The notes below the pieces were generated by a model, which saw nothing but the letters and a program-made list of their open reading frames with translations, was not told where the DNA came from and searched no databases. Shown here piece after piece: positions 21,282 to 57,521 of a stretch of DNA of 64,000 nt. The DNA lies in IMG/VR virus record IMGVR_UViG_3300042549_008472, positions 1-64,000 of that record. One strand, written 5' to 3'. Within the stretch, counting starts at the first letter, position 1. Every line of letters starts with the position of its first letter. The translations under genes and the position numbers were made by a program. The stretch is from a virus.

Positions 21282-24200
21282 TGGACAACGAAGGAATAAT
21301 TAAAGATTTACGCAACAAATACAACCCTAAAAATAACGTTAACTTATTTGAGGTAAAGTTTGACGCACCAAAGCAAGAACAAGTAAAACCAAGCTTTTAT
21401 TCATATTCTGCCGACACGCAAGATATGGCATATCAAACTCTAAACGATGATACTCAAATAGCACGATATGAAAGCTATGTACCAGGCTCAGATAACAGCG
21501 AAAGACTTGCCTTAAATCAATCAACAGGAGATAAATGGATAAATGGATTAGGTAAATTTCTAGGTAAAACAGGAACAGCAGTTGGTGGAGGCACAGTAGG
21601 AACAATTTATGGTATTACAGAAGCTATAAAACAAGGTTCTTTTGACGCTCTATACGACAATGATTTCTCTAGAAAGTTAGATGATTTAAACGTCAAAATG
21701 GACTATCAACTCCCTAACTACTATACAAAACAAGAAAGAGATAAAGGGTTTTTAAGCAGTATGACAGATGCTAATTTTTGGGCAAATGATGTACTATCAG
21801 GACTTTCATTTACAGTTGGTGCAATTGTTTCAGAAGGTATTTGGGCAGCTGCAACAGGAGGAACTTCACTAGCTTCAACAGGAGCAAGATGGGGAATGAG
21901 AACTATAGGTGAAGCAGGAATACGTTCAGGATTAAAATCATTGAAAGGAACAGGAAAAACCTTATTAAAAGTTGGAGCAGTTAATGTTGATAAAGCTATT
22001 ACGGCAGGAAAAATTGGCGCAGGAGTAAATGCTTTAAGATTTGCCATAACTTCAACAGGTTACGAATCAGGTGTAGAAGCATTACATTTTAAAAAAGAGG
22101 CGGAAGAAAACTTCCAAGCAGATTTTGAAAAATTAAATGGAAGAGCTCCAAATGAAGAAGACTATGCACTCTTTAAGGAGAATTTAACAGGAGCTGCTAA
22201 CGGAGTATTTGCGCTAAATACAGCTCTTTTAATACCTTCCAATTTAGCTATGTTTGGTCAGAATGTAATGAAAAACTTACCTTCGCCATTCAAAGGAGTG
22301 ACTCAAAAATTAAATAAAAGTTTATACGGAATAGGTACTAGATTAGAAGGAGAAACCCTTAAAGTTTTAGACCCCACTAAATTCCAGAGGATTGCAAGAA
22401 AAGCGACAATCTTAGGGAAGCCTGCCATAACAGAGGGTTTATATGAAGAGGGTATGCAATCAGTCGCTTCAAACTTAATGGGTAAATACTTAGAAGCAAG
22501 CTTTAACCCAAAATACACCCGAAACAGTATAGACATGTTTGACGCTGTATATGATAGTATGGCTGAAACCTATGGCACTAAAGAGGGCTGGAAAGAGATT
22601 GGGATAGGAATGCTTATAGGAGGTGGAACAAGCCTTCTTATGGGGCAAGGAGCTAACGAATTTAAAAAGTTAGATAAAGCTCAAAAAGATTATGCTGAGT
22701 ATACTAACACCTATCAGCAAATGAGCCTGAGACAGAAAGGCATTATGAGTAATCAAACCCAGACTGCCATAACCAACTCAGAGACAGCCTTAGAGAGAAA
22801 TGACAGAGTTGGAGCTAACTTAGCATCTAATGAGGCAATCATTGCTCAAATGGATTATAAGTTTTCAGTGGGGGAAGATTTAGCTGACTTGACAGCAGAG
22901 TATGCTGATGCTTTAAACAAAATGACGGCTGAGGAGTTTAAAGAAATAGGTGTAGAAGAGAGTCAAATACAAGAGTATAAAGATACAGTTATAAGTGCTC
23001 ACAAATCACTAACAGAAAGATACGATAAGAATAGAACTTTTGCTGACTTATTTGTAGGAAGCTCTAATGTAATAGGGATGGATACTCAAGCTTTCGCTAA
23101 GGGATTGGCGTTTGCTATGACACAAGGGGAGAACTCTAATATTCTTATGGGAGATATCATAGAAAATTTATCTCAAAAACTAGGAGCAGAAAATACAGCT
23201 TCAATTCAAGCCGAGAGAAAACTAAGACAAGCAGGAGCAGAAGTAACTCAAGAAGTATATAAAACGGCGGAAGAAATAAAAGCTCTACAAGCCAGAAGTG
23301 CTCAATTAGAAAAGACCATTAGGAGAGTACAAGCAAGACCTAAAACTACGGGGGACATTAAAGGTAATCAACAAGCAGGTAATGAATACTTTGACGTAGC
23401 TGAACAACTTATAGACGTACAAGCACAATTAAGTGAAAAGCAAGCACAATTAGACTCACTTGTAGCAAGAGTAAATAGTGAAATAGGAAAACAACAAGGA
23501 ATAGGAGAATTAAATTTACAAGGAAACCTAACAACAGACTTAGTTTCCTCAGATGTATTTTTAAACTTACAAGAGAATATAAAAAAAACAGACGCTTTAA
23601 TTGAATCTTACAGAAATACTAATCCACAAGCATTTGCGGAATTAGCTGAATTAACTAGACAATACAAGAGTGCAGAACAAAACTTTGAGGGTTATCAAAC
23701 CCTGGCTAATCAGATGATGAGTGGTAAGTTAAACTTCAAATCTACAAACACTTGGATTGGAAAAGCTTTGAAAAAGGGGCAGACCTTAGATGATTTTACC
23801 ACTGACTTTTTTGCAGGAATAAGAGACACAACAGAAAGAGCTAATGCAGAATTTGAAGTAGTAGATACACAAGAGGAAGAGATAGCAAGAGACCCTAACA
23901 AACCATCACAAGAAAATAAGAATGAAGAGAAAATACAGGTATTAAATCAACAGTTAAGCGAGTTAGAAGCAGAACTAAAAGCATTAGAAAATAAATCTAA
24001 AACTAATAATGGTAAAGTTACTAATGTTGTAACTAAACCCGAAGTTAAATCTGATATAGAAACTAAAAAAGCTGATATAGAAAAATTAGAAAAAGATAAG
24101 CAAGAAGAATTAAATAAAGATGTGTCAGACAGGTTTTCACAAGTAGAACGGCAACAAGCAAAACTTGAACCTAACCAAGAAGCACCTTTAAAGATAGGTA

Positions 24201-39221: not shown

Positions 39222-39242
39222 ATGTTAAAGTTTTAACAAAGA

Positions 39243-39274
39243 TTTGCACAGTTAAAAATTATTTTGTAGATTTG
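39243..39274 (+). promoter_or_regulatory. Bacteroidetes promoter of the HNH gene and its leader
   Basis: TTTG-N20-TAGATTTG. Confidence 0.7.
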
Positions 39275-39277
39275 CTT

Positions 39278-39382
39278 TGTAATTATTTTGTGCGAGATTT
39301 GATTACATTTAAAACACTAAAAAATATAATGCTGAAAGTTTGTTTGATGATACTCGCACTATCGGATAACAAACTTTTCGGC
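39278..39382 (+). ncRNA. Candidate kissing-loop RNA leader, copy 1
   Basis: Hairpin TGTAATTA/TGATTACA with GTGCGAG in the loop; second long hairpin with 7-nt loop CTCGCAC. Confidence 0.7.
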
Positions 39383-39398
39383 GTTTATAAGATAAAAT

Positions 39399-40337
39399 AT
39401 GTATAAAATTTGGACTGAATACGAAATTAACTTTTTAATTGAACACTACCCTTATAATGGTGTGAATTATTGTGCTAAAGAGCTAAATAGAAGTTATAGT
39501 TCTATAAGTAGAAAAGCACAGAAACTTCAAATAAATGTAAATGGACAAGTATGTAATATGTTAAAAAAAGAAGGAATTTCAAAATCTAATAAACCTAGAA
39601 GAAAAGATAGAGTAGGTAAAAAATTTATAACTTATCAAGGTTATGAAATTGAGATTATTGAATATTTCGGAGCACGAAATTGTACCATTAGATTTAATGA
39701 TAAAAATAACACTGTTAAATATAACGTAGCGGTAAAAGAAATACAAACAGGAAGTATTAAAAACTGCAATCATCCAGAAGTATTGGGTGTAGGGTATATT
39801 GGGATAGGTGACCATACTGCAAGGGTTGATGGTAAAATGACAAAATGTTATAACACATGGTTCAACATGCTAAGTAGATGTTATCAAAGTACAAATAATA
39901 GAAACTATAGTTATTGTGATGTAGAGGTTTGCGAAGAATGGCATAATTTTCAAAATTTTGCCGAATGGTTTTATGACAATTTTAAGAATAACGGTTGGTT
40001 TTTAGACAAAGATATTCTATGTCCAACTTGTAAAATTTACAGCCCTGAGACTTGCTGTTTTGTACCTAATGAGGTGAATGTACTATTTAGTAAAAATAAT
40101 ATAAGTACGTATAATTTACCAAGGGGAGTCTATCCTAAAGATGGTAAATATGAGTCTGCTATTAGTAAATTTGGTAAACAGTATTACTTGGGATTTTTTA
40201 ATACTATCGAAGAAGCACAACATACTTACAATACAGCTAAAAAAGAGTATATACAAGAAGTCAGTGATAAGTGGAGAGGTATATTAGCCGATAACATCTG
40301 TAATGCCATAAGAGATTTTGATATTAGTTTACTATAA
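39399..40337 (+). CDS. Free-standing HNH-type homing endonuclease with N-terminal HTH and C-terminal AP2-like domain
   Basis: YNTWFNMLSRCY, VCEEWHNFQNFAEWF, LDKDIL, YSPETCCFVP, LPRGV...YLGFFNTIEEA. Confidence 0.85.
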   Translation: MYKIWTEYEINFLIEHYPYNGVNYCAKELNRSYSSISRKAQKLQINVNGQVCNMLKKEGISKSNKPRRKDRVGKKFITYQGYEIEIIEYFGARNCTIRFNDKNNTVKYNVAVKEIQTGSIKNCNHPEVLGVGYIGIGDHTARVDGKMTKCYNTWFNMLSRCYQSTNNRNYSYCDVEVCEEWHNFQNFAEWFYDNFKNNGWFLDKDILCPTCKIYSPETCCFVPNEVNVLFSKNNISTYNLPRGVYPKDGKYESAISKFGKQYYLGFFNTIEEAQHTYNTAKKEYIQEVSDKWRGILADNICNAIRDFDISLL

Positions 40338-40362: not shown

Positions 40363-40393
40363 TTGCACATCAATAAAATATGTTTTATATTTG
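40363..40393 (+). promoter_or_regulatory. Bacteroidetes promoter
   Basis: TTG-N20-TATATTTG. Confidence 0.7.
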
Positions 40394-40444
40394 CAACATA
40401 ATCTGCTGTTTTATTCTTTTTCGCGGCAAAAAACAAATAAAAAT

Positions 40445-50639: not shown

Positions 50640-51404
50640 TTAATCTGTTATTTCTACTTGGTAAGCACACATTGCTTGGTAAACTTCATCTAAAATTAGG
50701 GATTTCCATTTATTAGCAATTTCTTTTATGTATATTTCTTTTGCTTCTTTGTACGCTTGAAACGCTTCTTCTATAGTTTTATACAATCCTAAATATTTCT
50801 GAATACCATTTCCTATTTTTAAATAAGCTTTATATTTATTACCTTCTTTTACTACTCCTATTGGACAACTACCCCTATTAATATTGTTTTTAATAAAAAG
50901 TGTATTGATTTCTTGTGGTACAAAGCAACAAGCTTCAGGTGAATAAACTTTGTTACCCTTGATTAAAATGTCCTTATCTAATTGCCAACCATCAATATAG
51001 TTATTTTCAAACCATTGTGCAAAGTTTTGAAAGTTGTGCCACTCTTCTACTACGCTACATCCCTTATAAGTGGGTTGTTTTTCTTGTGTTTTTTCACTAT
51101 AACATCTTAACAAAAGATTATACCATGTTCTATATTGCTTGTTAGTATTACCTTTATCTGAGGAAATATGGTCACCGTAACCAAAATATCCAACACCAAA
51201 AATTTCTTTATGGTAAGGGTTTTTAACACTCCCCCTTTTTAGATTAGATAGTCTAACTTTCATAATAAAACTATTCTCAAATTTTATATAAACATTATTT
51301 TTATCTACATACTCAACTATAGTTACTTTATAATCTTGCTTAGTTATAAAGACCATATTAGTGTAAAAATTACTATTTAATTCTTGTCTTTCTTTATTTG
51401 TCAT
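50640..51404 (-). CDS. HNH-type homing endonuclease (AP2-like C-terminus), paralogue of 39399..40337
   Basis: YRTWYNLLLRCY, EEWHNFQNFAQWF, LDKDIL, YSPEACCFVP. Confidence 0.85.
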   Translation of the reverse strand: MTNKERQELNSNFYTNMVFITKQDYKVTIVEYVDKNNVYIKFENSFIMKVRLSNLKRGSVKNPYHKEIFGVGYFGYGDHISSDKGNTNKQYRTWYNLLLRCYSEKTQEKQPTYKGCSVVEEWHNFQNFAQWFENNYIDGWQLDKDILIKGNKVYSPEACCFVPQEINTLFIKNNINRGSCPIGVVKEGNKYKAYLKIGNGIQKYLGLYKTIEEAFQAYKEAKEIYIKEIANKWKSLILDEVYQAMCAYQVEITD

Positions 51405-53962: not shown

Positions 53963-55018
53963 TTATTTATCTAATCTAAATCCAACAAATACAGGAAACC
54001 TCATAACACCCTCTTCACTTACTCCAAAATATCTAACTTCGCAAGTTTTACCAATGTAATCAGCTTTGTTTTTTAATAAGTCTACTCTTTCTTCATGTGT
54101 CAATCTTGTACCTGCTTCATTTCTTTTACCTTTAAAATCAAAAACAGGTGTACCCCATTCAGGTCTTTGTATTCCTGGAACAACGTCTATGAGAGGAAGA
54201 GCCACATCGTCAAAGTCTTTTTTCTTTAATAAATTAGAACTTCTACCATTTAATTTATAACCTTCATTACCATGTCTTACAATAGAGCCCTCATAACCTT
54301 CTTGTACAAAATTAATGTGAATTCTCTCTAAATCTTCTCTGTTTACTTCAAAGGTTTCAACTGTTTTTAGTGGTAAATTTAGATTTAAACTTTTAATGTG
54401 GTTACTTCTATTTTTAAATTTTTCGGCGGAAACAAAATCATAAATATGATACCAAACATCAAAAGACTCTTCTCTCCACTTCTTAATAAGTCTCATATTT
54501 TCTTGAAAACTTTTACCATGGATATATAATTCTCCATCATAAACTCCATCAGGCAGTTCACTTAAAGCATCTACTATGTGAGGAAGAGTTGTAATAGTTT
54601 TACCGTCTCTTGAAAGCATTTCTACTTCTCCATTCTTAACAGTTGATAAACAACGCATGCCGTCCAACTTAGCTTGAATAAAAACATCTCCATCCCAATC
54701 TATTTTCTTCTTTTCCTTTTCAAAATCTTTAGCTAACATTGGAAATAACTTCTCTCCATTTAAAGCTTCTTCTTGTGTTGGGTAGTAATCTTCTTTAAGC
54801 TTTATAGCAATCATAGCTTCCGCCTCTACTAAGCACTGTTCATAGTCTGTAGTTTCATTTACTTTTCCAATATTTTTACCTTTACATTCCTTTGAATGAA
54901 TTATAGGACTATCTGTATCTAGTAATCCTGACTCTTGGAAAAGTGTGTTACCCTCAGTTCTAATAGTTAAAAATCTTAACTTTCCTTTTGAGTCTTTTTT
55001 GTAAATTGTTTGTGTCAT
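53963..55018 (-). CDS. lig: ATP-dependent DNA ligase
   Basis: QAKLDGMR, DGELY, EGYEGSIVR, LLKKKDF, RFPVF; start moved to ATG 55018. Confidence 0.92.
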   Translation of the reverse strand: MTQTIYKKDSKGKLRFLTIRTEGNTLFQESGLLDTDSPIIHSKECKGKNIGKVNETTDYEQCLVEAEAMIAIKLKEDYYPTQEEALNGEKLFPMLAKDFEKEKKKIDWDGDVFIQAKLDGMRCLSTVKNGEVEMLSRDGKTITTLPHIVDALSELPDGVYDGELYIHGKSFQENMRLIKKWREESFDVWYHIYDFVSAEKFKNRSNHIKSLNLNLPLKTVETFEVNREDLERIHINFVQEGYEGSIVRHGNEGYKLNGRSSNLLKKKDFDDVALPLIDVVPGIQRPEWGTPVFDFKGKRNEAGTRLTHEERVDLLKNKADYIGKTCEVRYFGVSEEGVMRFPVFVGFRLDK

Positions 55019-55035
55019 AATTGTGTTATTTTTGA

Positions 55036-55066
55036 CAAAGATATGATTAATTTTTATGTTGTGCAA
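55036..55066 (-). promoter_or_regulatory. Bacteroidetes promoter
   Basis: TTG-N20-TATCTTTG. Confidence 0.65.
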
Positions 55067-55152
55067 TTAAATTTCGCGGAAAAAGGATAAAAAACAGACA
55101 TTTTATAGTAAAAATATCAGTTCAAACCTGACTAGAGTGATATGAATGGTAA

Positions 55153-55764
55153 TTATACCGAATCCCATCCAACTCCATAACATATTTTATCAAAACCAGC
55201 TCTGCCAACTTTATCGGAGAATAATTTATATAGATTATCATTATTTTTACCTTTTTTATAATTAGCTCGTATATATCTTACATCTTCATTGGTAAGGTTG
55301 GTGTTGGAATGTTGTTCTCCTTTTACTTTTTTAACGTTATCAAAACAGCCATTTATGTAAGCATGTAATCCATTTTCAGACTTAGTGCACCATTCTATAT
55401 TAGAAATTCTGTTATCCCATTTCTTAAGGTTTAGATGATTTACAATTGGTAGGTTTTCAGGATTATTCACAAAGTGCTCAGCTACAACTCTATGCCCTAA
55501 AAAATTAAATCTTACACTATCTACATACAATATTAATTGCACATAACCATTTGAATAATAGTTGTTTTTTAAAATCTTACTTTTGGTGAATTGCTTTATA
55601 CCATTACTTCTAGTTAATAATCTATCTTTATTTCTAAATCTACCTAAACTACTCACTTCATAATAATCTTCAAAACCTTTAATAGGTAGCCAAATTTCAC
55701 TTTCTAATTCTTCTTTAGTAAACTCAATTACCATTTTTCTTAACTCTTGCGTTGTTTGTTTCAT
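55153..55764 (-). CDS. NUMOD4-HNH homing endonuclease
   Basis: EIWLPIKGFEDYYEVSSLGR; HRVVAEHF...VNH...DNRISNIEWCTKSEN; start moved to ATG 55764. Confidence 0.88.
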   Translation of the reverse strand: MKQTTQELRKMVIEFTKEELESEIWLPIKGFEDYYEVSSLGRFRNKDRLLTRSNGIKQFTKSKILKNNYYSNGYVQLILYVDSVRFNFLGHRVVAEHFVNNPENLPIVNHLNLKKWDNRISNIEWCTKSENGLHAYINGCFDNVKKVKGEQHSNTNLTNEDVRYIRANYKKGKNNDNLYKLFSDKVGRAGFDKICYGVGWDSV

Positions 55765-55784
55765 ACTTAATTTAAAATAAAAAT

Positions 55785-55874
55785 CCCGCAAACAAAAACT
55801 AGGTAGGATAGTCTTCGTAAGCGGGGGTAATAAAAATTCTTTAAAGGTAATTAAGCATCCTACCGAGTAATTAC
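55785..55874 (-). ncRNA. Candidate kissing-loop RNA leader, copy 2
   Basis: Hairpin GTAATTA/TAATTAC with GGTAGGA in the loop; second long hairpin with 7-nt loop TCCTACC. Confidence 0.7.
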
Positions 55875-55880
55875 TGAGTG

Positions 55881-55912
55881 TAAATATACACCTTTAACTC
55901 TACACTTCCAAA
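55881..55912 (-). promoter_or_regulatory. Bacteroidetes-type promoter (variant -7 element)
   Basis: TTTG-N20-TATATTTA. Confidence 0.55.
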
Positions 55913-55934
55913 TGAGTGTTAAAATTTTAACTTT

Positions 55935-57521
55935 TTAGTAGAAAGTGGTGTATTTACCTTGGGTAATATGAATGTGTTGAGCTTTTCCATTAGGGTATAT
56001 AACCACGTTAGAGGCATTCCAGCTTGACATTCCAAGATTATACCCCATCCTAAGTTTAGTAAGAGTTCCAACACATAAATGCCCATCCGTTTTTGAACTA
56101 GTATGTGAATGTGCAGTGACCGTTCTAACATTTAGGTTTTTATATTGTGTAATGCTGCCTCTCGACCCAGATGCCCCACGATTCCCATGGATGGACAATT
56201 CAAAACCTAAAACATTGTAAGACTCATCTGCTCCAAGACACTTGATATGGTTGAACTCAGATTCTAATATATAAGCTATAATACCTTTAGGAGCTAAACC
56301 TTTTGCTGTAATGTTTGCATATTCAAGATATAGTTTTCTATTCCCTTCTTTTCTCCAATCACCGCTTTGTAACCATCTGTCAATGAAGTCGTTATGATTT
56401 GCAGACGGAATAATGTAGTTGTATTTAGGCTTAACTTTAAACCACTCTCTTATGTAGTTAATTTCTTTTTCTAAAGAGTGAGAACCGTCTTCTTCTCTCT
56501 TCAATAACTGAAATGGATTGGACTTCTCGTGATGACTGATGCTCGACATATCCGCGATGTCATGGAGTATTACGTGTTTAGGTTTAAATTTATCTAACAT
56601 ACCAAAAGTAACTTCTACATTTTCTATATCCTCTGCTGTTAAATGTAAATCACCTAAAACGGCAACCTCAATTTTATCATTATTATGAATCACACCATCA
56701 GTAAGACGATTATTCAAGTCATAGAAATTTCCGTTTTTCTCGGCAACAATTTGACGTATGTGAAAAATATCACCATCTAACTCTACTACAACACACCCTA
56801 TGACATGATTAAATTCACTAGATTTTCCAATTTTTGTATCCGTATAGTTTTCAACTGTACATGCTCCTGTGGTTAGTAGAACTTTACTTGGATACCCGTC
56901 CAATACTGGTAAAAATCTCATGTGGGAGCGAGGATGCCCAACAATACACGATTCTAGACCCGTCAAACCATTTAATGAGGTAAGGGGAAGTACTGATGTC
57001 GGTTGAATTTTTACGTCGCTTAAAACAACTAAATGCTTGTGTAAATTATGTCTGTTAGCATCAAGATAAGGTAAAATAGATTTATCCCAAGTATTTACAT
57101 TTTTTTCAGCCTTTTCTAATGCTTTACTAGATGCAAGAGAATTTGGATTTTTATAACGTCCAGCAATTATTAATATTTGTGCATCAATTTCTTCAGCATA
57201 GGCTTCCATATTTTTTAGAAAGCCCTTATGGACTTGTGTGTCTGACTGTGCCCAACTTATCAAAAATCTCTTCTTAGAATTATCATGCTGTTTTTTCTGA
57301 GCTTCCTTAAAGTCATCCGTGTCTTCAATTGTGACTACATTGTTAGTAACTCCTAATCTTTGCATAGCTTTTCTCATTCCTCTGCCATAAGTGTCATCAT
57401 CAAATGTAAGTCCAAAATGTTCACACATCTTTCTTGCCGCAGGTGTTACACTACTTCCTTGGTCTACAAGATTTTTTACAAAGGTTATATACTCTTCTGG
57501 ATACTTTGTCTTTTTACTCAT
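55935..57521 (-). CDS. T5 A1-like metallophosphoesterase nuclease
   Basis: KRFLISWAQ, TTGACTVENY, GDLH, HD, NH, HG.RG.SGSRG, HSH, MGYNLGMSSW match the phage T5 A1 family as recalled. Confidence 0.8.
   Translation of the reverse strand: MSKKTKYPEEYITFVKNLVDQGSSVTPAARKMCEHFGLTFDDDTYGRGMRKAMQRLGVTNNVVTIEDTDDFKEAQKKQHDNSKKRFLISWAQSDTQVHKGFLKNMEAYAEEIDAQILIIAGRYKNPNSLASSKALEKAEKNVNTWDKSILPYLDANRHNLHKHLVVLSDVKIQPTSVLPLTSLNGLTGLESCIVGHPRSHMRFLPVLDGYPSKVLLTTGACTVENYTDTKIGKSSEFNHVIGCVVVELDGDIFHIRQIVAEKNGNFYDLNNRLTDGVIHNNDKIEVAVLGDLHLTAEDIENVEVTFGMLDKFKPKHVILHDIADMSSISHHEKSNPFQLLKREEDGSHSLEKEINYIREWFKVKPKYNYIIPSANHNDFIDRWLQSGDWRKEGNRKLYLEYANITAKGLAPKGIIAYILESEFNHIKCLGADESYNVLGFELSIHGNRGASGSRGSITQYKNLNVRTVTAHSHTSSKTDGHLCVGTLTKLRMGYNLGMSSWNASNVVIYPNGKAQHIHITQGKYTTFY

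Follow-up and report, generated by a model that had tools for sequence, protein, structure and literature searches.

A predicted leader RNA with two hairpins joined by complementary loops upstream of phage homing endonuclease genes

In the 64,000-nt window analysed here (positions 1 to 64,000 of IMG/VR virus record IMGVR_UViG_3300042549_008472), two homing endonuclease genes of a phage are each preceded by a leader of about 100 nt that folds into two hairpins, P1 and P2, with complementary tips, and that is very probably a real structured RNA with loop-loop pairing. The leader in focus, referred to as copy 2, precedes a NUMOD4-HNH gene on the minus strand, while copy 1 precedes an AP2-type HNH gene on the plus strand. 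About 30 further leaders of the same architecture were identified in five phage contigs and in metagenomes. Taken together with its palindrome and promoter, the unit can be read as a portable expression cassette for free-standing homing endonucleases in which P2 acts as terminator or attenuator, a reading to which we give an even chance. All coordinates refer to the window. Its parent contig of 79.5 kb originates from lake-water metagenomes, is linear according to IMG/VR and has a CheckV completeness of ~56%.

Architecture of the two leaders

Copy 2 occupies the intergenic space on the minus strand between a 528-aa gene (phrog_1745, end at 55935) and the nuclease gene. Promoter, P1, P2, U-rich tract and ATG, as listed in the original prediction, were each found in place on that strand. 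A perfect 14-bp palindrome, GTTAAAATTTTAAC (55918-55931), lies 5 nt upstream of the -33 element of a presumed Bacteroidota-type promoter (55881-55912), which is composed of TTTG (55912-55909), a 20-nt spacer and the -7 box TATATTTA (55888-55881). Six bases past the -7 box starts hairpin P1 (55847-55874), whose 7-bp stem GTAATTA/TAATTAC carries the 14-nt loop CTCGGTAGGATGCT, including the code GGTAGGA (55858-55864) that is the partner of the P2 loop. An A/U-rich linker of 21 nt (55826-55846) leads to hairpin P2 (55785-55825), CCCGC-tt-ACGAAGACTA-[TCCTACC]-TAGTTTTTGT-tt-GCGGG. Its 15 bp comprise a 5-bp GC base, CCCGC/GCGGG, and a 10-bp upper stem with two G-U pairs, the two being separated by a TT/TT 2x2 internal loop, and the 7-nt apical loop TCCTACC (55802-55808) is the exact complement of the P1 code. 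The U-rich tract ATTTTTATTTT (55774-55784), a putative termination site, follows directly 3' of P2. The gene itself (55153-55764, minus strand) encodes a NUMOD4 + HNH_3 homing endonuclease of 203 aa, with profile matches at E = 3.8e-14 for NUMOD4 and E = 9.2e-8 for HNH_3, and its start at ATG 55764 agrees with homologues, which have an equivalent ATG. From the end of P2 (55785) to this ATG there are 20 nt, which are unpaired in the centroid fold, and P2 does not include the start codon. On the coding strand, copy 2 is thus flanked by a promoter consensus on its 5' side and by the ATG on its 3' side.

Copy 1 forms a cassette at 39224-39398 on the plus strand, with its palindrome at 39224-39237, promoter at 39243-39274, P1 at 39279-39306 and P2 at 39331-39382, and precedes the gene of an AP2-type HNH endonuclease (phrog_953; 39399-40337, plus strand), the ATG of which lies 16 nt past P2. 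Here, P1 consists of GTAATTA, a 14-nt loop and TGATTAC, and the loop pair is formed by GTGCGAG (39290-39296) and CTCGCAC (39353-39359), the latter capping a long P2. Pairwise alignment revealed that both copies are homologous across palindrome, promoter, P1 and the beginning of the linker, while their P2 hairpins are unlike in length and sequence. The proposal of a second, homologous leader copy is thus borne out by shared features, namely the 14-bp palindrome, the type of promoter and the P1 stem. Likewise, complementarity was indeed kept while the loop sequence changed, since copies 1 and 2 have different bases at five of the seven loop positions and every one of these changes is compensated; the register of the loop code inside the 14-nt P1 loop is shifted by one base. 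A third homing endonuclease gene of the window (50640-51404, minus strand; phrog_953, E = 1.4e-70) has neither leader nor intergenic space, its ATG overlapping the stop of the preceding open reading frame (ORF).

Fold and loop pairing

On their sense strands, both leaders fold better than shuffled sequences, with z-scores of -4.1 (copy 2) and -2.9 (copy 1), and better than their antisense strands, with folding energies of -29.1 vs -20.5 kcal/mol in copy 2 and -27.5 vs -20.1 kcal/mol in copy 1. Together with the G-U pairs, this argues for an RNA that is read toward the nuclease gene. In copy 2, P2 is present in the minimum free energy (MFE) as well as the centroid fold and amounts to -19.7 kcal/mol; P1 alone is weak (about -2 kcal/mol), and the kiss duplex of 7 nt, once extended to 8 nt by the closing A-U pair, is worth about -11 kcal/mol. 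The MFE fold of copy 2 also joins the 3' strand of P1 to the stretch preceding the ATG, an alternative that was dropped since it is not conserved in copy 1, and no conserved leader peptide was found.

When the complete contig was scanned on both strands by folding energy, five candidates emerged, three of which are copy 1, copy 2 and the antisense image of copy 2. A first version of the detector, searching for exact stems, gave ~63 matches in shuffled sequence and was dropped as too permissive, while the energy-based versions give ~4 weak matches per 470 kb of shuffled DNA. In view of this background, counts alone were not relied on. Several matches within coding regions were rejected after inspection (L057, L090, L093, G001 at 66630 and others; L numbers denote single loci, and G001, G002, G003 and G004 whole IMG/VR contigs). 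A chance origin of the leader is excluded by its fold relative to shuffles, by the contig scan and by its recurrence with other matched loops.

The complementarity of the two loops is under selection, as had been claimed, which is evident from compensatory changes both between copies 1 and 2 and among nine aligned relatives. In alignment A3, which holds the nine alignable leaders and was scored with P1, two P2 helices and the kiss as a pseudoknot, 97.9% of the cells of the whole structure are paired, as compared to 33-42% if the 3' partners are slid by 1-3 columns. The kiss helix comprises 8 pairs, 4 of which have changed on both sides, with 98.6% of the cells paired, and the covariation score of A3 was reached by none of the shuffles (0/500). 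In the A3 subfamily with outer stem GCCTCA, the pairing bases of the P1 loop are always preceded by two unpaired A's, and unpaired CC(C)U closes the P2 loop (columns 24-25 and 89-91). Unpaired purines flank other kissing loops as well, e.g. the dimerization initiation site (DIS) of HIV-1, and the flanking bases of A3 recall these.

Across all leaders, 17 loop codes occur, each with a perfect match. Complementarity of cognate P1 and P2 loops covers 6-10 nt (mean 7.5), in contrast to mostly 2-3 nt for non-cognate loops, the few higher non-cognate values being found between near-identical codes. Between copies 1 and 2 cross-complementarity extends over 3 nt, so that no cross-pairing is expected. 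Two sites of one 81-kb IMG/VR contig (L143 and L205) have one and the same transcribed leader of 119 nt, both loops included, while their promoter spacers and downstream genes differ; distinct codes are, therefore, not obligatory. Moreover, loops evolve no faster than stems in the A3 subfamily, and from both observations it follows that distinct codes are explicable by drift with compensation. Selection against cross-talk between codes is possible, yet not required. Further sites matching the loop codes are not in excess within the contig, with 6 found vs 4.1 expected.

Relatives in other phages

Starting from IMG/VR relatives of the two nucleases, two loci with promoter, P1, P2 and differently coded matched loops were obtained, and four whole contigs were then scanned. 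On G001 (130 kb), leaders lie 5' of genes for an AP2-type HNH (loops ATACGAGC/GCTCGTAT), a GIY-YIG+AP2 nuclease (ATGCGAA/TTCGCAT) and a 278-aa protein without known family (GTAGTGC/GCACTAC). G002 (36 kb) carries leaders 5' of a NUMOD4-HNH (CTCCGACA/TGTCGGAG) and of a DnaD-like helicase loader (TCGGACAA/TTGTCCGA), and G003 one 5' of a GIY-YIG nuclease (TCCGACC/GGTCGGA). Copy 1 is akin to the ATACGAGC group of leaders, from whose code its own departs at two positions, both compensated in P2. G002, the contig of locus L043, is a complete 36-kb phage that is readable only with TGA as sense codon. Its promoters are sigma-70-like (TTGCAA-N16-TATAAT), and its leaders, ending at ~33321 and ~30727 (minus strand), have canonical terminators of hairpin plus U-run.

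Searches of IMG/VR and metagenomes for the palindrome plus TTTG, together with a P2-stem pattern, yielded ~20 more cassettes that are clearly homologous. The genes 3' of these cassettes encode GIY-YIG proteins with NUMOD1/NUMOD3, NUMOD4-HNH_3, LAGLIDADG_3, DUF723/MUG113 and AP2-type HNH, and some cassettes also serve family-less cysteine-rich proteins of ~310-340 aa. The family is defined by an A/U-rich linker of 10-30 nt that connects P1 to a longer P2, and copy 2, with 7 bp in P1, 21 nt in the linker and 15 bp in P2, agrees with this. Variant leaders 5' of two GIY-YIG genes (L181:1165-1341 and L182:1067-1281) have no P1 hairpin; instead, a terminator-like hairpin has a large apical loop to which ~15 nt near the transcript start form a perfect complement. 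Based on this variant, the constant theme would be a 5' end tethered to the P2 tip. A search of IMG/VR with the P1 stem pattern gave two chance matches only, both within coding sequence.

By DNA similarity, no leader homologue was found in deposited phages. The only match among these, in Tenacibaculum phage PTm1, is a plain promoter, and no kissing leader turned up in 50 kb of PTm1 sequence. Contigs of four lake-water runs (X3-X6) covering 54900-56400 do not differ from copy 2 wherever the leader is covered; as these runs come from several studies (2020-2024), the same phage strain recurs across samples and years. Among the public sequencing runs with this phage, no RNA runs are listed.

Association with nuclease genes

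For the five phage contigs, profile searches delivered a set of 19 HNH_3, phrog_953 or GIY-YIG genes. A leader precedes 6 of these 19, as compared to 2 of ~611 other ORFs (Fisher p = 8.6e-9). Overall, four or five nuclease families are found with the leader: NUMOD4-HNH, AP2-type HNH, GIY-YIG, LAGLIDADG and DUF723-type. The original prediction that the RNA tracks nuclease function rather than one gene lineage is supported, as several nuclease families are involved and the nearest relatives of the copy 2 HNH (51-79% identity) have no leader, but the association is not exclusive, since a DnaD-like loader, a family-less protein and small ORFs are also served. The closest relatives of the copy 2 HNH sit in unrelated phages; the idea that G003 and G004 are related to this phage and carry the HNH at a common locus was rejected, the nuclease gene being all they have in common with it. 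Identical leaders are found before different ORFs (L142/L163 and L169/L191), and relatives of the nuclease occur without leader. This makes the leader a module whose recombination is not tied to the ORF.

Palindrome and promoter

The palindrome GTTAAA(A/G)TTTTAAC has only two sites in the 79.5-kb contig, namely those of copies 1 and 2. In both, it precedes the -33 TTTG by 4-5 nt, and ~20 metagenomic cassettes have it as well. As a candidate operator of the promoter, it may be bound by a transcription factor of host or phage origin through which expression of the cassette is timed. Two palindrome-bearing promoters without hairpins were also found, 5' of a ribbon-helix-helix gene and of a SprT-like gene. 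In the former case (L165:1648-1862), palindrome and hairpin-free promoter stand directly 5' of a gene for a 46-aa ribbon-helix-helix (CopG-like) protein, which is a candidate binder of the palindrome. In the contig studied here, only a weak look-alike of the CopG-like protein is present (~69090-69215, E = 0.006). In three Maribacter genomes (loci L207, L219 and L224), palindrome and TTTG are likewise arranged 5' of a gene for a PII-like protein (MKKIEAIIRKSKFDDVKEAL...). Matches to the palindrome pattern in GVMAG sequences were rejected, as they represent the antisense strand of ubiquitin genes.

The motif TTTG-N18-21-TAnnTTTG, which we take to be the Bacteroidota housekeeping promoter, occurs 14 times in the contig vs ~3 times in shuffles, with most sites 25-35 nt 5' of an ATG. 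The 14 matches include copy 1; copy 2, a putative promoter, is one base off in the -7 box and was not counted. The other promoters of the phage, 25-35 nt from the ATG, have no hairpins. Compared with these, the leaders of the two nuclease genes, which are ~125-135 nt long and structured, are unusual. Furthermore, a promoter-like site directly follows each nuclease gene of the window that has a leader. In case of copy 2, a putative promoter (55036-55067, minus strand; ATTG, 20-nt spacer, TATCTTTG) is placed 3' of the nuclease gene and 5' of a DNA ligase gene (53963-55018), and in case of copy 1 the site is found at ~40364-40395 on the plus strand (TTG-N20-TATATTTG).

Possible function of the leader

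According to the reading we favour, the cassette would comprise, in this order, a palindromic operator, a Bacteroidota-type promoter, the ~100-nt leader and, ~20 nt further on, the nuclease ORF. In the leader, the P2 apical loop very probably pairs with 7-8 bases of the P1 loop, giving a kissing complex (pseudoknot). Given its GC-rich base and the U-rich tail, P2 would most likely be an intrinsic terminator or attenuator, so that transcription, whether initiated at the cassette promoter or at upstream phage genes, would mostly end ahead of the nuclease ORF and read-through alone would yield nuclease. The kiss would help or lock the folding of the long A/U-rich P2, in that the weak P1, stabilised by the loop-loop helix, would clamp or nucleate it. 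The separate promoter 3' of the nuclease gene would then restore transcription of the next phage gene. That the main role of the leader is to dose expression through termination has, in our estimation, just short of an even chance.

Attenuation is favoured because the GC base and the U-tail of P2 are the best-conserved parts, combined with a layout like that of T4 mobE (see below). In A3, mean pairwise identity is highest in the -7 box and the U-rich tail (0.92 each) and in the outer GC stem of P2 (1.00 and 0.88), compared with 0.59-0.77 in the other leader segments (P1, kiss, linker, upper P2) and 0.41 in the stretch from tail to ATG. The canonical terminators of both G002 leaders and the lack of hairpins at the other promoters of this phage are in line with termination as well. 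As to the claimed resemblance of P2 to a terminator, the GC base followed by a U-rich tail is recognised by eye, and in copy 2 CCCGC/GCGGG followed by ATTTTTATTTT fits an intrinsic terminator, although the stem is long and interrupted. Several points weigh against termination, however. A simple terminator scan called neither copy 1 nor copy 2, and the U-tract is weak or interrupted in copy 1 (GTTTAT) and in some relatives. A promoter followed immediately by a constitutive terminator needs a modulating signal, and none was identified. In G002, the linker of ~10 nt between stems of 12-13 bp may, by geometric estimate, strain an intramolecular kiss. Finally, most nuclease genes in the same genomes have no leader, including the third HNH of the window, and neither have the closest homologues of the copy 2 HNH (51-79% identity).

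Among the alternatives, a post-transcriptional element of the mRNA survives best, although we regard it as unlikely. In this case, the leader would affect stability, provide a processing site (e.g. for RNase III on the helix of P1, kiss and P2) or support Shine-Dalgarno-independent initiation; in the translational variant, it would position the U/A-rich stretch before the ATG. Such a role would be in line with the location of P1 at the predicted 5' end of the transcript and with L181/L182, where pairing of the first ~15 nt with the P2 apical loop conserves the tethering of the 5' end. Moreover, the P2-to-ATG stretch is short and conserved across different ORFs (e.g. AAGCCAAAATG), and P1, kiss and upper P2 would add up to a helix of ~24 bp by our own estimate. 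The best-conserved parts are, however, the determinants of intrinsic termination, the start codon is outside P2, and cleavage is without evidence.

Alternatively, the unit from promoter to P2 could be a small RNA gene, whose terminated RNA of ~100 nt acts in trans on cognate leaders via the coded loops, a possibility that we judge distinctly unlikely. Its targets would be leaders on other genome copies or on co-infecting phages, with the loop code defining a specificity group as in P1/P7 c4, P4 CI and plasmid copy-control RNAs. Indeed, promoter, 5' hairpin and terminator-like 3' hairpin make up a complete small transcription unit, the 17 codes display little cross-complementarity, and related leaders such as L195 and that of G001 at 22944 combine similar P2 stems with different loops; in addition, the short linker of G002 may, again by our own estimate, favour intermolecular pairing. 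On the other hand, both partners are always on one transcript, which kinetically favours pairing in cis, and the fact that loops are no more variable than stems in A3, the identical leader at two sites of one contig and the lack of surplus loop-code sites in the contig all speak against action in trans. Even less probable is a variant in which short terminated leader RNAs act in trans on nascent cognate leaders, sense the copy number of the cassette or a co-infecting phage with the same cassette, and switch termination accordingly. If the code did act in trans, homing-endonuclease cassettes would form RNA-defined 'incompatibility groups', a one-strand analogue of plasmid copy control or P1/P7 immunity.

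It is highly improbable that the hairpins act as DNA, i.e. as cruciform, recombination or homing site that moves the cassette, with an incidental RNA fold: the presence of identical leaders before different ORFs, the presence of the same nuclease with and without leader and the potential use of the shared ~120-bp leader as homology arm would suit such a function, but G-U pairs of the stems turn into A-C mismatches when the opposite strand is folded, the sense strand has the better fold, loop-loop complementarity has no known role in duplex DNA and is nevertheless kept by compensatory change, and the leader always lies between promoter and ATG on the coding strand. A group I intron remnant was rejected, with no Rfam match and both flanking genes intact.

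Relation to known systems

A comparison of the whole window with Rfam 15 at gathering threshold gave no match. When both leaders were searched at E up to 5, nothing was obtained for copy 2 and only far sub-threshold chance matches for copy 1, and none of the leaders at seven related loci matched Rfam 15, including its C4 antisense RNA, HEARO, group I intron, hammerhead and other ribozyme families. A full-text literature search for homing endonucleases combined with kissing or loop-loop interactions or a terminator stem-loop returned no description of such a leader. Relative to published knowledge, the leader is a new RNA family and, at the same time, a variant of a known theme, a 5' terminator or attenuator restraining a selfish nuclease.

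The attenuator reading has its nearest counterpart in T4 mobE, a free-standing HNH gene, where the nuclease transcript is restricted by an intrinsic terminator close to the 5' end (30-50% termination) and a downstream promoter compensates for the next gene (mobE/nrdB), the terminator being present only in phages with the nuclease gene (PMC2790892). mobE has no promoter of its own, and its terminator, a simple 9-bp hairpin, is located 27 nt inside the ORF (PMC2790892). Common to both systems are a hairpin with U-tract at the start of the nuclease unit and, farther downstream, a promoter (putative in the present phage) from which the following phage gene is expressed. Unlike mobE, the leader described here has its own promoter, a second hairpin and loop-loop pairing, and there is no sequence or family relation. 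Hairpins of T-even homing endonucleases (I-TevI and relatives, Aeh1 mobE) reportedly sequester the ribosome-binding site and are bypassed from a late promoter inside, according to work attributed to Gibb, Edgell and Belfort. They likewise represent a 5' RNA structure of a selfish nuclease gene, which keeps expression low or delayed; in the present leaders, by contrast, P2 ends 20 nt before the ATG, no Shine-Dalgarno sequence takes part and the promoter lies upstream of both hairpins.

The P1/P7 c4 and P4 CI RNAs are processed out of their transcripts, act in trans at or near a ribosome-binding site and control immunity genes. As in the leaders studied here, complementary segments are on the same strand within one leader and matched changes give rise to new specificities, the outcome in P4 being premature termination. 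The present leader has no match to C4 of Rfam. In plasmid kissing control (ColE1 RNA I/RNA II, R1 CopA/CopT, pT181), the partner RNA is derived from the opposite strand and complementarity is automatic. Shared features are fully paired loops of ~7 nt whose sequence sets specificity and, in pT181, a kiss that decides on a terminator before rep; unlike there, both loops are here part of one RNA and must co-evolve. HEARO, the omega RNA of IscB, is also a structured RNA adjoining HNH-domain nuclease genes. It is, however, a guide scaffold of ~300 nt for an RNA-guided nuclease, while the present leaders adjoin protein-guided homing enzymes of several unrelated folds.

Biological significance

Among the selfish genes of phages, free-standing homing endonucleases are some of the commonest, yet the restraint of their expression is known only from a few T-even cases. 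In the phages studied here, a single portable module of operator, promoter and pseudoknotted leader is used by nucleases of four or five unrelated folds and spans phages with different promoter types, one of them with a different genetic code. The natural, mutually non-complementary loop pairs could be tried as orthogonal RNA parts. If confirmed, the leader would constitute a new and abundant Rfam family and a clean example from nature of how compensatory evolution maintains a long-range kissing interaction, and it would provide a handle to annotate homing-endonuclease cassettes and their boundaries in the genomes of uncultured phages.

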